64,000 bases of DNA from a virus. The translations under genes and the position numbers were made by a program. How positions within the stretch are numbered: the first letter of the stretch is position 1; each line of letters starts with the position of its first letter. The notes under the pieces are model-generated. The model had not been told where the DNA came from, did not search any database, and worked only from the letters and a program-made list of their open reading frames with translations. The stretch spans positions 64,001 to 128,000 of the IMG/VR virus record IMGVR_UViG_3300036766_002288; one strand, written 5' to 3'. This document shows, one piece after another, positions 3,191 to 48,792 of the stretch.

Positions 3191-3742
3191 ATGAAAAATT
3201 TAGAAGTCGAAATTATGACATTAAGGGAAGATGGGCATTCTTACAACGCCATAGCAAAAAAACTAAATTGTTCTAAAGGCACAATTAGTTATTATTGCGG
3301 TGAAGGACAAAAACAAAAAAGTAAAACAAGGATTCAGAATAGAAGAAAAAATACTGTAATTTCGAAACGTGTTGAAAACTTTCAAATTGATAGAAAAATA
3401 AGAGACAAATCTGAAGATTTTCAACGGGAAAGAATAATTGTTAAGAGTAAAACTCGTTTAGGCAAACGGTCTTTGACATTTACTTGGAGAGATGTAATTG
3501 ATAAATTCGGATGGGAAACAATATGTTATCTAACTGGAAGGGCTATAAATTTAAGAGAGCCGAAAACTTATCAGTTTGACCATATACATCCTTACGGCAA
3601 AGGAGGAAGTTCAACTTTAGATAATTTAGGTATTCTTATTAAAGAAGTAAATCAAGCTAAGGCAGACATGACCGTTGAAGAATTTTTAAATCTATGTAAA
3701 GACGTTTTGGAATATAATGGCTATGAAGTAAAACGTTTGTAA
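3191..3742 (+). CDS. HNH homing endonuclease with N-terminal HTH
   Basis: HTH LREDGHSYNAIAKKLNCSKGTISYY; CYLTG...FDHIHP..KGG....NL......VNQAK. Confidence 0.85.
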   Translation: MKNLEVEIMTLREDGHSYNAIAKKLNCSKGTISYYCGEGQKQKSKTRIQNRRKNTVISKRVENFQIDRKIRDKSEDFQRERIIVKSKTRLGKRSLTFTWRDVIDKFGWETICYLTGRAINLREPKTYQFDHIHPYGKGGSSTLDNLGILIKEVNQAKADMTVEEFLNLCKDVLEYNGYEVKRL

Positions 3743-4175: not shown

Positions 4176-4922
4176 ATGGCTATTTTCCTAGAACATGTGA
4201 ATAAGCGAGATTTAAATAAAAGATTATTTGAAACTTTTGGCAAGTACAAAGTCTTCATTGTAGACGGCCAAGCCATTAGAAAACTTAATCTAACTGACCA
4301 TGAGTTTACTGATTCCGCCATCCATGCTACCTTTCCTAAATTAATACCAGATAAGGAAATATGGATAGATGATGTAATCAAACCGAATGAAAGATTTATA
4401 TTGATAAGTAATTTACTATCATTATACAAGTATTTAAGTAAAGAATCCTTGGACAAAGCTTATGATAAAGCATTGAAAAAAGAAAAGTCGATGAGGGAAA
4501 AGGTAGACAACGTAAGATTACATCCAGAAAAAACGAATGAAAGAGCGTCACCGAAGGTTTACAAGAGTCTATATGGTAAGATTGGAGATGTTAAGATTTG
4601 GTTGGTAGATGGGGAATACGTAAGAGATAAGTATAAGACAGATTATACCGAAGGTGGACACGATTACGTATACAAATGGATTCCACACAATGAAATTTGG
4701 ATTGAGTCCACAATGCATAAGTCTGAAATGCCTTTGATCGTTTTACATGAATTTGTGGAAAGAACATTGATGAAGACCAAGGGAATAGAGTATGATAAGG
4801 CACATACGATTGCATCGAAAGTGGAATTTGCAAAAGAAGATAAGTTTGATAGGAACGATGTTTTATCCATGACTGAGGATAAGGCATTGAAGATGGACGA
4901 GACGCGAGTGGTTAGCAACTGA
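4176..4922 (+). CDS. Hypothetical protein with internal domain duplication and HExxE motif
   Basis: (V/W)xVDGxxxR...IPxxEIWI occurs twice; LHEFVERTLM..H in the second copy. Confidence 0.75.
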   Translation: MAIFLEHVNKRDLNKRLFETFGKYKVFIVDGQAIRKLNLTDHEFTDSAIHATFPKLIPDKEIWIDDVIKPNERFILISNLLSLYKYLSKESLDKAYDKALKKEKSMREKVDNVRLHPEKTNERASPKVYKSLYGKIGDVKIWLVDGEYVRDKYKTDYTEGGHDYVYKWIPHNEIWIESTMHKSEMPLIVLHEFVERTLMKTKGIEYDKAHTIASKVEFAKEDKFDRNDVLSMTEDKALKMDETRVVSN

Positions 4923-5115: not shown

Positions 5116-5640
5116 ATGAAAGAACAAATATTAAAACTCCGTGCAGAAGGTTTGTCTTATAGGGAAATCTGTGCCCGATTAGACTGCTCAAAAAGTGTAG
5201 TGTCCTACCATTGTGGGGATGGACAAAAAGTAAAAACTAGGATTAGGGCACAAAAAAGACGAGGCAGGGCGGTTGTAGATAATAAAATTTATAGATTCAA
5301 AAATAAAAAAGCCTTGAGAGACAAAACGAACGATTTCCAACGAAGAGAAGGGGGCAAGCTTAAAATTAGAAAAATTATTTTTAATTATGAAGATGTAATG
5401 CAAAAATTTGGAGAAACCCCTATATGCTATTTAACGGGAAGAGAAATAAATTTAGAAGACACAAAAAACTATCACTTTGACCATATTATACCAGCAACGC
5501 GCGGCGGCTCAAACGATATAGATAATTTAGGACTAGCGTGTAAAGAAGCAAATAAAGCTAAGTCAGATATGACAATAAATGAGTTTATACAAATTTGTAA
5601 AGAAGTATTAGAGCATAATGGTTACAGGGTAATTAAGTAA
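5116..5640 (+). CDS. HNH homing endonuclease with HTH (paralog of 3191-3742)
   Basis: LRAEGLSYREICARLDCSKSVVSYH; CYLTG..FDHIIP..RGGSN...NL...CKEANKAK. Confidence 0.85.
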   Translation: MKEQILKLRAEGLSYREICARLDCSKSVVSYHCGDGQKVKTRIRAQKRRGRAVVDNKIYRFKNKKALRDKTNDFQRREGGKLKIRKIIFNYEDVMQKFGETPICYLTGREINLEDTKNYHFDHIIPATRGGSNDIDNLGLACKEANKAKSDMTINEFIQICKEVLEHNGYRVIK

Positions 5641-6462: not shown

Positions 6463-6660
6463 ATGGACAAGCGTGAATACCGACAACTAAAAAGGACTTT
6501 AAAAAAAGAAGGCAACAAAAAGGCACGAAAAAAACTTAAAAATGACTTAAGAGACAATCCTGAAGAAACCCATTGGTCAGAGATAGATTACGGCAACTGT
6601 AAGACCGAAGATATGAAAAAATACAGCAGAGGACATGAAGATGAATATAGGTCTATTTGA
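6463..6660 (+). CDS. Small basic hypothetical protein
   Basis: GGAG SD, in operon order. Confidence 0.55.
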   Translation: MDKREYRQLKRTLKKEGNKKARKKLKNDLRDNPEETHWSEIDYGNCKTEDMKKYSRGHEDEYRSI

Positions 6661-7210
6661 TATGGACGGTAGCTTAGCTGATTATGAAGGTCAACTAAGG
6701 AAGGATTTGACCAAATGTCTTGGTGAAGAAGATTTGAAAAAGTTCGATGAGTTAGGCATGTGGAAAGCTGACGACCAAGAACCATTTAAATCACTCATTA
6801 GACTGATTAAGAATCAACCTTGTTGGTGGAAGAATCTCCCAGTAATGCAGAAAGGACTGGATATTTTCCACCTTGCTGTGCAGATTGGTTTTAAGAACCA
6901 TATTTTAACTAAGGGTCCAAAACATTATCCAAGGGCGTGGAAAGAAAAAGTTGAATGGTCTCAGCATTTATTTGGCAAGGATATTGACATTCATATAACA
7001 TCGGATAAAGGGTTAGTTTACGGCAGATTTTTATATGACGATTATCCTGATTATATGTTAAAATGGCTTGGGAGGCGTCCAAGGGGTTTGGGTATTATGC
7101 CAGTGAACAATTTCAATAAGGATTTTAACCATCCACAGGTAATTAAATGGGATGGAATAAACTATGATGAAGTGAAGGAAGCGTTGATAAAATGTTTCAA
7201 TAGGGGCTAA
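6641..7210 (+). CDS. 5'(3')-deoxyribonucleotidase (NT5C/HAD family)
   Basis: LFDMDGSLADY, WWxNLP, ILTKGP, EKVEW, DK..V.G..LYDD. Confidence 0.85.
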   Translation: MNIGLFDMDGSLADYEGQLRKDLTKCLGEEDLKKFDELGMWKADDQEPFKSLIRLIKNQPCWWKNLPVMQKGLDIFHLAVQIGFKNHILTKGPKHYPRAWKEKVEWSQHLFGKDIDIHITSDKGLVYGRFLYDDYPDYMLKWLGRRPRGLGIMPVNNFNKDFNHPQVIKWDGINYDEVKEALIKCFNRG

Positions 7211-7231: not shown

Positions 7232-7266
7232 AAATAAAAATTAAAACGTGTTTACTATATTAGTTG

Positions 7267-7749
7267 ATGAGAAAAAGAAAATGGAATGACGAGCAATTAA
7301 TAGAAGCTGTTAAAACAAGCAAATCGGTGATGGAAGTATTGAAAAAAATTGGCTTAGGTTTAAGTGGTGGCTCCCATGCTTTGGTAAAAATGAGGATTAA
7401 ACATCTTAAAATTGATAATTCTCATTTTACAGGAAAAGGATGGTGCAGAGGGGAAAAGCACGAGGAATTCATTAAGCGAGTACTTCAGTATCCTTTAGAA
7501 CAAGTTTTAGTCAGAGATTCAACTTATCAGAACACACATGCCTTGAAAAAAAGACTTATAAAAGAAGGATTATTAATAAACGAATGTTGTAATTGTAAAC
7601 TAACCACATGGCTCAATGAGCCTATCAGTTTACAATTACATCATAAAGATGGAGATAGATGTAATAATTTGATTGGAAATCTATCAATACTATGTCCAAA
7701 TTGTCATAGTCAAACATCTACATTTGCAGGTAAGAGTAAAAGAAAATAA
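7267..7749 (+). CDS. HNH homing endonuclease (second subfamily)
   Basis: WNDEQLIEAV..S.S..EVLKK.GL; CCNC..W....LQLHHKDGD..NN...NL..LCPNCHSQT. Confidence 0.9.
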   Translation: MRKRKWNDEQLIEAVKTSKSVMEVLKKIGLGLSGGSHALVKMRIKHLKIDNSHFTGKGWCRGEKHEEFIKRVLQYPLEQVLVRDSTYQNTHALKKRLIKEGLLINECCNCKLTTWLNEPISLQLHHKDGDRCNNLIGNLSILCPNCHSQTSTFAGKSKRK

Positions 7750-8779: not shown

Positions 8780-8861
8780 GGCCAAGTGGTGGAACGGTAT
8801 ACACAGCAGACTTAAAATCTGCCGCCCGTTGGGCTTGCGGGTTCAACTCCCGCCTTGGCCA
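8780..8861 (+). tRNA. tRNA-Leu(TAA), class II
   Basis: GGCCAAG/CTTGGCC, GCAGA-CTTAAAA-TCTGC. Confidence 0.95.
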
Positions 8862-9003
8862 CTATATGTCTTTCATAATAAATTTAACCTTTCTGCCAGT
8901 ATCAATATTTGCATACTTACTATTCCAAAAATGGTATAAACCAATTACAATTCCAGGCATACTATATCATTACATTGAAACTGGTAAATGGGGAAACTAG
9001 CCA

Positions 9004-9567
9004 ATGGAAAGAACTGAACTAACTGATGGCGGATACATATTGTATCAACCAGATTTCTATAATACAAAAATCGCAGATAATCTCTTCAACTTGTTACTAG
9101 ATGTTCCCTGGAAACAAGAGACATTTTCTTGGGGCAAATTTCCTAGACTCACATCTTATTACGCCGATGAAGGTGTAAAATATGAATATTCTGGAGTCAC
9201 CCACAAAGCTTTGGTATGGCCAGGAATTCTCTCAGCGGTAAAAGATAAAACTCAACAAGTTGTTGGTGAGAAATTTAACAGTCTATTGTTAAATTTCTAC
9301 AGGGATGGTGCGGATTCTATTGGCTGGCATTCAGATGATGAGAAAGAATTAGGAATAAATCCAATCATTGCATCTATTTCATTGGGTGCTGAAAGAACAT
9401 TCAATGTTAGGCACAAAAGAACTAAGGAAAAGTGGTCTATAGTTTTAAAGAATGGAAGTTTAATAGTTATGGGTGGTACAATGCAACATCATTGGCAGCA
9501 TTGTGTGCCAAAGACAACCAAGCCAGTTTTTGCAAGAATAAACCTTACTTTTAGGAACATTTTATGA
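9004..9567 (+). CDS. alkB: AlkB-family 2OG-Fe(II) dioxygenase (ALKBH2/3-like)
   Basis: PRLTSYY, NSLLLNFYRDGADSIGWHSDDE (HxD), HWQHCVPK, RINLTFR. Confidence 0.92.
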   Translation: MERTELTDGGYILYQPDFYNTKIADNLFNLLLDVPWKQETFSWGKFPRLTSYYADEGVKYEYSGVTHKALVWPGILSAVKDKTQQVVGEKFNSLLLNFYRDGADSIGWHSDDEKELGINPIIASISLGAERTFNVRHKRTKEKWSIVLKNGSLIVMGGTMQHHWQHCVPKTTKPVFARINLTFRNIL

Positions 9568-13483: not shown

Positions 13484-14347
13484 TTGTTGGTAAATACTAA
13501 AATGAGTGTGTCACTTGATGAGTTAGTTAATTGTGATGGGCAATTAGTCTATGCTATTGATGAAGAAGAGAACGTCTACATAGGTATTTTGTATTATAAA
13601 CCAGAGAACGGTGAATTTTCGGTTGAAATTTGGGAAGATTCGTGCTGCGCGATGGCAATAATGACTCCAGACGACCTTATTTACTTAATTTGTAATAATC
13701 CTAGCGGAACAGTAATAACATTCTTTGACCCAGACTTGTTTGATTTAAATACGACTTGGACAGTTCCTGATGGTATTTTTTCTGTATTTGTCGAATGCTG
13801 GGGCGCGGGTGGATATGGCAATACTAATATTAGTGGTGCATTTGGAGGTGGTGGAGGTGGTGGGGGTGCTTACGCTGCTAGTATAGTGTCAGTAATGCCT
13901 GGAGATGTTTATAGTATAACGATTACAAATACTAATTGTAATCCTAACTTCGTTTCAACCATATTTGGGTCAAATTTAGTTACTGCTGCTGCGGGGAGTT
14001 GTGCTAATGCTCTTGGCATAGGTGGGGCAGGCGGGCAAGTGGCAGATAGTATAGGCACTACTAGATTTGCTGGTGGAAATGGTGGGGATGGGGACACATC
14101 TGTTGGAGGTAGTGGCGGCGGTGGTGGGGCATGTGCAGGGCCAGGTGGACCAGGAAATGCTGGGGCAATTGTCACTGGTGGTGTCGGAGATGGTGATTTA
14201 GCAGGCAGTGGCGGGGCAGGAGCGGCATTGCCTGCAACTCCTGCCGATTTTGGTGGACTTTATGGTGGAGGTGGAGGTGGTGGAGCAAGTGGTGGAGCAA
14301 TAGAAGGAGCAAATGGACCCCCAGGAATTATTCGTTTAACATATTGA
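13484..14347 (+). CDS. Glycine-rich-domain virion-type protein
   Basis: WTVPDGIFSVFVECWGAGG..GGGGGAYA..GGGGG..G..GIIRLTY module. Confidence 0.7.
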   Translation: MLVNTKMSVSLDELVNCDGQLVYAIDEEENVYIGILYYKPENGEFSVEIWEDSCCAMAIMTPDDLIYLICNNPSGTVITFFDPDLFDLNTTWTVPDGIFSVFVECWGAGGYGNTNISGAFGGGGGGGGAYAASIVSVMPGDVYSITITNTNCNPNFVSTIFGSNLVTAAAGSCANALGIGGAGGQVADSIGTTRFAGGNGGDGDTSVGGSGGGGGACAGPGGPGNAGAIVTGGVGDGDLAGSGGAGAALPATPADFGGLYGGGGGGGASGGAIEGANGPPGIIRLTY

Positions 14348-14379: not shown

Positions 14380-14910
14380 ATGAAATACACCAAGGAACTA
14401 CTTGAGGCCATAGTAAAAGAAAGCTTATCAGTAGCCCAAGTTATAAAGAAATTAGGACTAAAACAAGCTGGTGGTACGCATCATTACATTTCAAAAAAGC
14501 TTAAGTGCTTTGAAATTAATGTTGAGCATTTTACTGGACGCGCAAGTAACCACGGAGACATGCATAAAGGTGGCCCAGCTAAAAGAACGTGGCAAGAAAT
14601 ACTAGTTTTAAGAGAAGATGGTAAAAGACAAAGAGCATTTGTATTAAGACGTGCATTGATTGAATCTGGAAGCAATTACGAATGCAGTATATGTAATATT
14701 AAAGAATGGTTTGGCAAGACAATAATTCTAGAAGTAGACCATCTAAATGGCGATTATTGTGATGACAGAAAAGAAAATATAAGATTTATGTGCCCGAATT
14801 GTCATAGTCAATCACCTAAATATTGTGGCAGTAAGGGTTACACAACTATAACTAGCACTGCCAAATCGCAGAAAGAAAGAAGGAAGAGAGTACAGTTGGC
14901 CAAGTGGTGA
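14380..14910 (+). CDS. HNH homing endonuclease (paralog of 7267-7749); stop lies inside the next tRNA
   Basis: YTKELLEAIV..S.S..QVIKKLGL; CSIC..W....LEVDHLNGD..D....N.RF.CPNCHSQ. Confidence 0.9.
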   Translation: MKYTKELLEAIVKESLSVAQVIKKLGLKQAGGTHHYISKKLKCFEINVEHFTGRASNHGDMHKGGPAKRTWQEILVLREDGKRQRAFVLRRALIESGSNYECSICNIKEWFGKTIILEVDHLNGDYCDDRKENIRFMCPNCHSQSPKYCGSKGYTTITSTAKSQKERRKRVQLAKW

Positions 14911-15001
14911 AATGGCATACACGCAGGTCTTATTGGTTAAACAACCAGCAATAGAAGCCTGTGCCCGTAAGGGCGTGCGGGTTCAAGTCCCGCCTTGGCC
15001 A
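14898..15001 (+). tRNA. Class II tRNA-Leu (probably TAG) with 21-nt insertion in the anticodon loop
   Basis: GGCCAAG/CTTGGCC, CAGGT/GCCTG stem enclosing a 28-nt loop CTTATTGGTTAAACAACCAGCAATAGAA. Confidence 0.8.
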
Positions 15002-15005
15002 CTTT

Positions 15006-15341
15006 ATGAGTCGATACGGATTTGATTTAGATGGAACTCTTGATGTTCCTTCCATAGCACAACTCGCCAATGATTTATATGACGCAGGACACGAAATATA
15101 CATAGTCACAGGTGGGTTTGGCGATCATGGAGAATGGACAATTTCTGAGCGCGAAAAGAAATTAGCCAGACTTGGTGTTAAATACACAGAAATCATTCGT
15201 TGTTTAAAACCCTCTTTTGAAGAAATTGGTAAAGAGAAAGGTCGTATTTGCAAAGAAAGAAAAATTTCTTTGTTATTTGACGACTCAGAAACTTATATCC
15301 AGCAATCTAAAGGGGCGGTCCAATGTCTGAAAGTGATCTAA
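15006..15341 (+). CDS. HAD-superfamily small hydrolase
   Basis: GFDLDGTL, IVTGG, KG..C......LFDDS. Confidence 0.7.
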   Translation: MSRYGFDLDGTLDVPSIAQLANDLYDAGHEIYIVTGGFGDHGEWTISEREKKLARLGVKYTEIIRCLKPSFEEIGKEKGRICKERKISLLFDDSETYIQQSKGAVQCLKVI

Positions 15342-15553: not shown

Positions 15554-15874
15554 ATGGAACTTCATGGTTCAGATTTAGTTTTTGAGAATGTGAAAGTACC
15601 AATTTCAGAAGATTTGGTTATACCTATAATCAAAACTCACTGGCCTGAGTTGGTCTACGAAGCAATGATGGAAAATGGTGATCTGCACTTGTTCATGCAC
15701 CCAAATCAACACGCTGAAGAATCTTGGGACGATGAAGGTTGGTCTGAAGAAAATGACATAACTTTGATTTACATGATTTGGGATGAATCGAAGGCTGAAC
15801 TGACTTTTGTGATTGACGATGAGAAGAAAAACAAGTATATCGTAGATGACATACAGAAAGGTCTTGGGTTCTAA
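15554..15874 (+). CDS. Acidic hypothetical protein
   Basis: ORF abutting upstream stop. Confidence 0.6.
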   Translation: MELHGSDLVFENVKVPISEDLVIPIIKTHWPELVYEAMMENGDLHLFMHPNQHAEESWDDEGWSEENDITLIYMIWDESKAELTFVIDDEKKNKYIVDDIQKGLGF

Positions 15875-17713: not shown

Positions 17714-17837
17714 GGCCGAATAGTCTAACGGTATGGCGGTAGAATTACATTACGTGGCTTTGGCTGAAAATGCCGATATTATAGTTTCCACATAATCCCT
17801 AATCTACAGATGGCGGGTTCAATTCCCTCTTCGGCCA
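17714..17837 (+). tRNA. tRNA (probably Val TAC) with 52-nt structured insertion in the anticodon loop
   Basis: GGCCGAA/TTCGGCC, A73, D-arm GTCTAACGGTATGGC, GTAGA/TCTAC stem enclosing 59 nt, T-loop TTCAATT. Confidence 0.75.
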
Positions 17838-48042: not shown

Positions 48043-48792
48043 TTACTCAGTGACAAAAGCCTCATCTTTTAAAACAAATATATATTCCGTATAACCCAAC
48101 AGATATTGAAGTCCAATACATGTTAGGCATAGTAAAGATTGTTTGTAAACGTTTTCAATATATTTTTTATGGCAACCATAATCTCTAAATCCTTCTATAG
48201 GACGTTCATGTCCTTCTGGGACAATTCCACCTATACCATAATCTACCAAATTAGTATATTTCTTTTTTTGTTTACTAAATTCAATCTCGTTTGTACAAAT
48301 TCTTATCAAATCCGTATGTTCAAAATCAAGTAAACCACCAATAATAATACAAGCAGATGTTGGACATCGTTCTGAAATTGTTATACCTTCATCTGGCATA
48401 ACAATTTTCCCATAAATGAAATCAGAACTTTTGATACAAAAAGCAAGGGGTCTGCGATTGTTACAAATAGTTGAATCATGTGATGGTGCAAATACAATTT
48501 TATTTTTTTCAATCAACTCAGCAATAGGTCCAGTAAATTCAATTTGAAAAATTGCATTACTGTCATTAACTCCGTTAATTGCTCGTATTGCTTCATTCAG
48601 ATCACATTGCTTAAGATTATATTCAATAAACCTATTTTGTTTGACAAATTCATCAAGCAACTTGTCACTATATCTTCTGTGATTACCCAAATGACTATCT
48701 GGCTTAAGTTTCCCACACCTATCCCAATTCCGTAAAGTGCTTTCACTGACCTTAAGCATTTCCGCGACCTCTGAAATTGTAAAATTTAACAT
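48043..48792 (-). CDS. MerR-type HTH protein
   Basis: TISEVAEMLKVSESTLRNWDRCGKL....GNHRRY. Confidence 0.7.
   Translation of the reverse strand: MLNFTISEVAEMLKVSESTLRNWDRCGKLKPDSHLGNHRRYSDKLLDEFVKQNRFIEYNLKQCDLNEAIRAINGVNDSNAIFQIEFTGPIAELIEKNKIVFAPSHDSTICNNRRPLAFCIKSSDFIYGKIVMPDEGITISERCPTSACIIIGGLLDFEHTDLIRICTNEIEFSKQKKKYTNLVDYGIGGIVPEGHERPIEGFRDYGCHKKYIENVYKQSLLCLTCIGLQYLLGYTEYIFVLKDEAFVTE

Follow-up and report, generated by a model that had tools for sequence, protein, structure and literature searches.

A tRNA-Leu gene of a huge phage carries 21 extra bases in its anticodon loop, and a homologous insert occupies the anticodon loop of a different leucine isoacceptor gene in related phages. 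The insert may be a protein-spliced mini-intron: cut out on the 5′ side of the wobble base, with the exons resealed by phage RNA-repair enzymes. This reading is held tentatively, at somewhat short of an even chance. An enzyme-spliced micro-intron had been among the suggestions of an initial sequence-only reading of this DNA; it stays the best account, strengthened now that a second tRNA-Leu gene, in relatives, proves to have a homologous insert in the same place. The tRNA introns familiar from bacteria and phages are self-splicing group I ribozymes, whereas protein-spliced ones are archaeal or eukaryotic, and we know of no enzyme in bacteria or phages that excises such inserts.

The window analysed here comprises 64,000 nucleotides, bases 64001-128000 of a 187-kb IMG/VR virus record (IMGVR_UViG_3300036766_002288; G000) with a CheckV completeness of 37%. 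It is syntenic with the complete 595-kb genome of an uncultured phage (LR756511.1, denoted W01; locus L011), at protein identities of 40-70%. It is also syntenic with the IMG/VR records G001/G002 (locus L045) and G003/G004 (locus L054), where the protein encoded at window positions 6635-7210 is about 73-74% identical. A further locus, L145, is a metagenome contig. Class II tRNA-Tyr genes and a tmRNA gene are present. Because of these genes the host is indicated to be a bacterium; an archaeal host, which would make the intron ordinary, is thereby ruled out.

The interrupted gene spans 104 nt, 14898-15001, and is matched over its full length by Rfam RF00005 at 45.9 bits (gathering score 29; E = 1.4e-6 for the whole window). 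In the Rfam alignment the anticodon loop has 24 bases where the model expects 3. Direct reading finds every stem perfect: the acceptor stem, GGCCAAG/CTTGGCC, with discriminator A; a D stem of 3 bp, GTG/CAC; the anticodon stem, CAGGT/GCCTG; a long variable arm with a 4-bp stem; and the T arm, GCGGG/CCCGC. A cloverleaf above the gathering score, the long variable arm, and discriminator A73 mark the gene as a class II tRNA-Leu; its leucine anticodon, TAG, appears only once the insert is taken out. Of the 28 nt between the two anticodon-stem strands, 7 belong to the loop and 21 are extra. Both junctions have the TA repeat, and removal after nucleotide 33, 34, or 35 consequently gives the same loop, CT-TAG-AA; uninterrupted phage tRNA-Leu genes with an identical anticodon stem and loop were found at L002, L003, L004, L006, and L007. 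ARAGORN does not call the gene by default, and its intron mode wrongly reports SeC(tca) with an intron of 14 nt.

The minimum-free-energy fold leaves the cloverleaf intact and places a 6-bp hairpin, TTGGTT/AACCAG with loop AAAC, atop the anticodon stem. Its energy is unremarkable (−3.9 kcal/mol, z = −1.6). The insert hairpins in general are energetically weak (z from −0.8 to −1.7), and their energy is not significant as evidence. The sequence-only reading had described a tRNA-Leu(TAG) body with a 21-nt insert, three registers that restore CT-TAG-AA, and an insert that folds as a hairpin; all three descriptions are borne out, by the Rfam score and direct reading, by direct reading, and by the minimum-free-energy fold, respectively. 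A tRNA intact in all but its insert favors the mini-intron.

The long-arm leucine genes elsewhere in the window have the anticodons GAG, CAA, and TAA. The initial description of TAG as the one isoacceptor absent from the class II set therefore stands in one respect, the window having no other long-arm TAG gene, and falls short in another: a long-arm CAG gene is also absent, and a short-arm tRNA-Leu(TAG) is present. This redundancy counts against the mini-intron and for an alternative that we regard as unlikely, if still to be taken seriously. Here a DNA-level insertion, either a small mobile element or a product of repair or recombination, would have inactivated a dispensable tRNA-Leu gene, now dead or parked, and would never be removed from the RNA. 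The short-arm gene would cover the same codons, and a recently killed gene would look just like this one.

Table 1. The interrupted tRNA-Leu gene, its surroundings, and its counterparts. Positions without a locus name are those of the window.
Feature	Position	Strand	Basis or remark
Short-arm tRNA-Leu(TAG), redundant decoder of the same codons	5735-5811	+	Rfam 51.5 bits; loop CT-TAG-AA
Uninterrupted long-arm tRNA-Leu(TAA)	8780-8861	+	ARAGORN and Rfam; positional counterpart of the interrupted tRNA-Leu(TAA) of G001/G002
HNH endonuclease gene, last 13 nt overlapping the tRNA 5′ end (acceptor strand)	14380-14910	+	PHROG 10822, E = 1.3e-48
tRNA-Leu 5′ exon, nt 1-33 (acceptor 5′ strand, D arm, CAGGT, C32, T33)	14898-14930	+	Rfam alignment, direct reading, ortholog alignment
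21-nt insert, 33/34 register (shifts of +1 or +2 give the same product)	14931-14951	+	Rfam, 24 bases against 3; homologous 23-nt insert in L045:12721-12826 and L145
Insert hairpin: TTGGTT (14933-14938), AACCAG (14943-14948), loop AAAC	14933-14948	+	Minimum-free-energy and centroid folds
tRNA-Leu 3′ exon: TAG (14952-14954), A37, A38, GCCTG, long variable arm, T arm, acceptor 3′ strand, discriminator A	14952-15001	+	Rfam, direct reading, ortholog alignment
Predicted standalone capless HAD phosphatase, 111 aa, T4 Pnkp 3′-phosphatase type, starting 5 nt after the tRNA	15006-15341	+	
Second interrupted tRNA (Arg type), 52-nt insert readable at 33/34	17714-17837	+	Rfam 40.5 bits; insert-bearing orthologs L045:18771-18894 and L054
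Uninterrupted tRNA-Leu(TAG) ortholog, W01	L011:5968-6050		Ortholog alignment
Uninterrupted tRNA-Leu(TAG) ortholog, G001/G002	L045:17055-17138		Ortholog alignment
Uninterrupted tRNA-Leu(TAG) ortholog, G003/G004	L054:6945-7029	complementary	Ortholog alignment

The insert belongs to none of the intron classes against which it was compared. The core of a group I ribozyme, P3-P9, typically takes more than 200 nt; 21 nt cannot hold it, so the insert cannot self-splice. Moreover, Rfam searched at E up to 1 over 14700-18100 matches just the two tRNAs, and no family except tRNA in or around the insert. In a bulge-helix-bulge motif, the splice sites lie in two bulges of 3 nt each, on either side of a 4-bp helix. 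When both arrangements were enumerated in all registers, none had full central and flanking helices; none was common to the three known copies of the insert, and none arose in minimum-free-energy or suboptimal folds. (The sequence-only reading had judged the insert too short for self-splicing and without bulge-helix-bulge geometry; Rfam, the folds, and the enumeration all agree.) Inserts of the kind reported from Lak phages, about 50-90 nt and folding as a tRNA or mini-helix with a T-arm-like motif and a CCA-type end, are likewise ruled out as a model: this one has 21 nt and a 6-bp hairpin and ends in GCAA, with neither T-loop motif nor CCA end. An RNase III-like staggered geometry, on an alternative helix between the insert 5′ end and the anticodon, proved inconsistent between copies in a hand analysis.

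The orthologous tRNA-Leu(TAG) is uninterrupted in all four related phages (W01; G001/G002; G003/G004). These orthologs are 84-88% identical to the window gene in their exons, have the same type of D arm and an identical variable arm, and retain all stems through compensating changes. However, a homolog of the insert is conserved in a paralogous gene. In G001/G002, an insert of 23 nt interrupts a long-arm tRNA-Leu(TAA) at L045:12721-12826 (ARAGORN call, Leu(taa) i(34,23)), and a third variant of the insert interrupts a tRNA-Leu(TAA) on contig L145. The window and tRNA-Leu(TAA) inserts are identical at 18 of 20 aligned positions and form the same hairpin; the 6-bp stem is kept in both other variants, with changes from U·G to U-A. 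The sequence-only reading had looked to relatives for its refutation, in an insert that was absent or not conserved there, and the answer is divided: absence from the ortholog, conservation in the paralog.

The two types of insert-bearing gene, TAG and TAA, are merely 78% identical in their exons and differ at four of the five anticodon-stem pairs, and the nearest relatives of both are uninterrupted. The interrupted tRNA-Leu(TAA) sits just upstream of a 2OG-Fe(II) oxygenase gene, the place where the window holds its uninterrupted tRNA-Leu(TAA); the window and G001 thus have opposite combinations, each with the insert in one leucine gene and not in the other. With the same insert in two genes whose nearest relatives are uninterrupted, gain or loss must have been exact to the base. 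At the level of DNA, then, the insert apparently moves or can be removed with precision, as an intron would. (The junctions do differ between versions, by one extra U at the 5′ end and a 3-nt indel; this and the weak hairpin speak against a mini-intron.)

An assembly artefact is rejected, since G001, G002, and L145 are independent assemblies and all three have a homologous insert. Among viral contigs, exact matches to the insert or to the 3′ half were found nowhere beyond G001/G002, and a search of 185,579 prokaryote genomes for the insert pattern returned none. The window version is known from a single record, a point against the mini-intron.

How do these comparisons bear on a dead gene? The four relatives whose orthologs have no insert are compatible with one. 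On the other hand, the same insert lies at the exact loop position of a second leucine gene with different flanking stems, and neither insert-bearing gene shows decay. The G001 and L145 genes differ at three positions within the tRNA, each change preserving structure: A5G and T68C form a compensatory pair in the acceptor stem, and a G-to-A change in the hairpin converts U·G to U-A. By rough estimate, three random changes would include two that fall on a single base pair and restore it with a chance of about 0.005. Pairing maintained in both tRNA and hairpin favors the mini-intron over the dead gene, although gene conversion among paralogs could be an alternative source of such substitutions and weakens the argument to that extent.

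The second gene also narrows the choice of register. In the tRNA-Leu(TAA) copy, removal at 33/34 is the sole register that gives both U33 and a leucine anticodon, and the window copy can use 33/34 as well. A fourth register noticed in the window, which would yield the anticodon TAT, has no counterpart in the relatives' copy, where only 33/34 gives a sensible loop, and is dropped. Nor does the TA direct repeat appear meaningful: the footprint of a TA-duplicating transposon fits the window copy, but the G001/L145 copy would keep a 6-nt loop. The failure of target duplication for the G001 copy is a further point against a dead gene.

A separate observation concerns the G001 insert (L045:12754-12776), whose arms resemble the acceptor strands of the same tRNA, but with the order exchanged: with A added, the 5′ arm looks like the tRNA 3′ end, and with ATG added, the 3′ arm looks like the 5′ end together with GTG. 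Such a likeness may be chance, a consequence of the palindrome, or a hint of origin from a tRNA-tRNA junction.

Elsewhere in the clade, too, interrupted tRNAs can be read with the insert at 33/34. This holds for the Arg-type gene of the window and for its orthologs in L045 and L054, and a 102-nt tRNA of W01 reads TT, a 30-nt hairpin insert, then TCT-AA. The shared site argues for the mini-intron and against a dead gene. That W01 tRNA is one of three more over-long tRNA matches in LR756511.1: 288201-288302 (102 nt); 291311-291437 (127 nt); and 48527-48647 (121 nt), in which the extra bases fall in the variable region.

Interrupted tRNAs were seen beyond the clade as well. An unrelated phage tRNA-Leu-like gene at L192 and L215 (IMG/VR 3300001765_000249 and 3300002026_000208) has an anticodon-loop insert of about 34 nt and the same variable arm. 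On another large phage fragment, L159, ARAGORN in intron mode calls Lys(ctt) at 4762-4870 with a 29-nt insert and Arg(tcg) at 8977-9101 with a 51-nt insert. The Lys insert seemingly precedes nucleotide 32, and insert sites therefore differ between phage groups.

The HNH gene that overlaps the tRNA 5′ end suggests another role for the insert, as a shield at the DNA level. By disrupting the recognition site of a homing endonuclease (the adjacent HNH) or of another enzyme that targets tRNA genes, the insert might protect the gene, with or without later removal from RNA; we rate this as distinctly improbable. HNH-type genes do lie directly upstream of both interrupted leucine genes, and that of the tRNA-Leu(TAA) in G001 (an HNH/EndoVII-like gene about 200 nt away, L045 11713-12525) is absent beside the uninterrupted tRNA-Leu(TAA) of the window, its only hits being weak ones to other HNH genes. 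But the two HNH genes are of unrelated types. Moreover, an ortholog of the window HNH (74.6% amino acid identity; L045 16548-17054 in G001) abuts the uninterrupted tRNA-Leu(TAG) in the same manner, so the pattern expected of collaborative homing or nuclease immunity, uninterrupted alleles without the nuclease, is not the one found. Finally, at least four HNH genes lie amid the class II tRNA genes of the window (3191-3742, 5116-5640, 7264-7749, and 14380-14910), and adjacency is to be expected by chance. For these three reasons the link between insert and nuclease seems weak, and the sequence-only suggestion of a homing-immunity scar left by the adjacent HNH is not sustained. (An array full of HNH genes would provoke break repair, which suits a dead gene.)

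Enzymes that could repair a cut tRNA are encoded in the record and its relatives, a further point for the mini-intron in a phage with a bacterial host. The gene immediately downstream, ORF 15006-15341, is predicted from its modeled structure to be a polynucleotide 3′-phosphatase of the Pnkp type, with no kinase domain. Its four HAD motifs (DxDxT, T/S, K, and DD) are invariant in 24 homologs, and it has a weak match to PHROG 415, 'polynucleotide kinase' (E = 3e-4). The AF2 model (pLDDT 97.8) gives Foldseek TMq values of 0.72-0.76, and the eight entries that match it best in structure are, without exception, polynucleotide kinase-phosphatases. By VIA, 109 of 111 residues align with T4 Pnkp 159-297 (Z 12.9-13.7, rmsd 2.4-2.5 Å); Pnkp1, of the Pnkp1/Rnl/Hen1 repair complex, follows at Z 12.0-12.2, and then an unrelated HAD protein at Z 10.6.

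The ORF belongs to a family of metagenome proteins of about 111-114 residues, its closest homologs being P0056 (88% identity) and P0057 (81%). No tRNA was found near its IMG/VR relatives (L008-L010). Relative to W01, the segment 13484-15553 is an insertion that holds a Gly-rich protein gene, the HNH gene, the interrupted tRNA, the phosphatase gene, and a zinc-ribbon ORF; at the syntenic place W01 has a KOW-repeat gene and then, within 325 bp, a homolog of 15554-15874. For ORF 13484-14347 no relatives were found. Likewise, no homolog of the phosphatase was found in W01, G002, or G003, and its absence from the records that bear the other insert copy, incomplete as these are, speaks against the mini-intron.

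Additional repair genes lie elsewhere. Record G000 (C1, about 30.9-32.8 kb; L153:1036-2903) encodes an Rnl5-like RNA ligase (PF09414 plus a PHA02142 OB domain) followed by a Thg1-like gene; with its Thg1-like tRNA 5′-end repair enzyme, this pair is a probable tRNA repair cassette. In W01 and G003, a kinase-only protein adjoins a T4 Rnl1-type ligase beside tRNA genes, which suggests that Pnkp has been split into separate kinase and phosphatase proteins in this phage clade. By these annotations, the clade has the half of a splicing pathway that would 'heal and seal'.

EndA and RtcB (PF01974 and PF01139) were found neither in G000 (37% complete) nor in W01 (595 kb, complete), G002, or G003; RtcB is present in a more distant relative, G007. 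The sequence-only reading had proposed a search for RtcB, Rnl, PNK, or EndA-like genes, and the outcome is mixed: an Rnl5-like ligase and a Pnkp-type phosphatase in the record, but no EndA or RtcB. Together with the lack of a bulge-helix-bulge, this counts against a mini-intron; the failure to find EndA or RtcB also favors the dead gene.

The protein-spliced mini-intron nonetheless suggests a concrete sequence of events. The gene would be co-transcribed with its neighbors, and its transcript would fold as an ordinary cloverleaf whose anticodon stem has the insert hairpin stacked upon it. A hypothetical protein endonuclease would cut 3′ of U33 and 5′ of the wobble base U34, perhaps by measuring from the anticodon stem rather than by reading the insert sequence. 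The ends would then be healed and sealed by repair enzymes of the phage, for which the downstream Pnkp-type 3′-phosphatase, the clade kinase, and the Rnl1-type and Rnl5-like ligases are candidates, or by enzymes that the host might supply instead. The product loop would be CU-UAG-AA.

A precedent exists for resealing at this junction: T4 Pnkp and Rnl1 rejoin nucleotides 33 and 34 after cleavage by the anticodon nuclease PrrC. In a different idea, which we consider very improbable, the unspliced RNA is itself the product, a tRNA-shaped RNA with an enlarged anticodon loop serving as a decoy or sensor for host anticodon nucleases, or else a pro-tRNA, as the sequence-only reading had proposed, activated by a nuclease cut and phage resealing. 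The insert lies at a PrrC-type cut site, repair enzymes are encoded in the clade, and only class II tRNAs make up the array, a class that anti-phage nucleases are known to target; the anti-phage system Septu, for example, cuts tRNA-Tyr (PMC13096335). Even so, the insert loop mimics no anticodon loop, and a hypothetical host nuclease would be required.

The mini-intron can be set beside several known systems. In T4, the repair of PrrC-cut tRNA-Lys by Pnkp and Rnl1 concerns the same junction between nucleotide 33 and the wobble base; here a Pnkp-type phosphatase gene adjoins the tRNA, and kinase and Rnl1 occur in relatives. However, T4 mends a single nick, whereas this phage would require two cuts and removal of 21 nt, with a Pnkp that is apparently split. 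Bacterial tRNA-Leu(UAA) genes carry group I introns in the same anticodon loop, at the 34/35 site, which is one of the three registers of the window gene; by contrast, the present insert has 21 nt and no ribozyme core, and the relatives' copy is readable at 33/34 only. In collaborative homing, a free-standing endonuclease acts with an intron, as in cyanophage psbA and F-CphI. Here, too, a free-standing nuclease gene adjoins the interrupted gene, but its ortholog also lies beside an uninterrupted allele.

Closer parallels come from other huge phages and from archaea. Introns in tRNA genes of Lak megaphages were termed 'enigmatic' (Devoto et al. 2019, PMC6784885), and intronic sequences have been recorded in tRNAs of jumbo phages (PMC13037316); neither paper gives a mechanism of removal. 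Those inserts share with this one the anticodon loop, huge phages as carriers, conservation between related phages with variable presence among close relatives, and no Rfam family. They differ in size and place: the Lak inserts (Table S6; Tyr and Phe) have 79-93 nt and are predicted at 37/38, whereas this one, at 21 nt and with a hairpin of 6 bp, directly precedes the wobble base on its 5′ side. The Lak authors suggest that the insert may itself encode a tRNA (PMC6784885), and the present case differs further in that movement between two isoacceptor genes is documented.

In the account that a review (PMC4090602) gives of Fujishima et al. 2010, very short, near-identical introns were transposed among tRNA genes of Thermoproteales. 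Like such archaeal bulge-helix-bulge mini-introns, the phage insert is very short and near-identical in different tRNA genes, which would imply transposition and protein-only splicing. Unlike them, it has no bulge-helix-bulge motif, EndA and RtcB were not found in the phage records, and the host is bacterial; protein-spliced tRNA introns are stated to be absent from bacteria (PMC4090602).

For the enigmatic tRNA introns of phages, these results provide three new elements: a homologous pair of inserts in different isoacceptor genes, as evidence of exact mobility; a defined junction at nucleotides 33/34, the one that T4 Pnkp and Rnl1 repair; and the gene of a candidate healing enzyme, beginning 5 nt beyond the tRNA. 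A bolder generalization, on balance doubtful but worth stating, is that huge phages run a protein-only tRNA splicing system of their own, with a ruler-type endonuclease that acts at U33 and the wobble base regardless of what separates them, a split Pnkp, and an Rnl1-type or Rnl5-like ligase, and that the 21-23-nt hairpin is a mobile mini-intron passing from one tRNA-Leu isoacceptor gene to another. Should the joined tRNA exist, phage-infected bacteria would contain an undescribed cutting enzyme that works with the RNA-repair enzymes of large phages.
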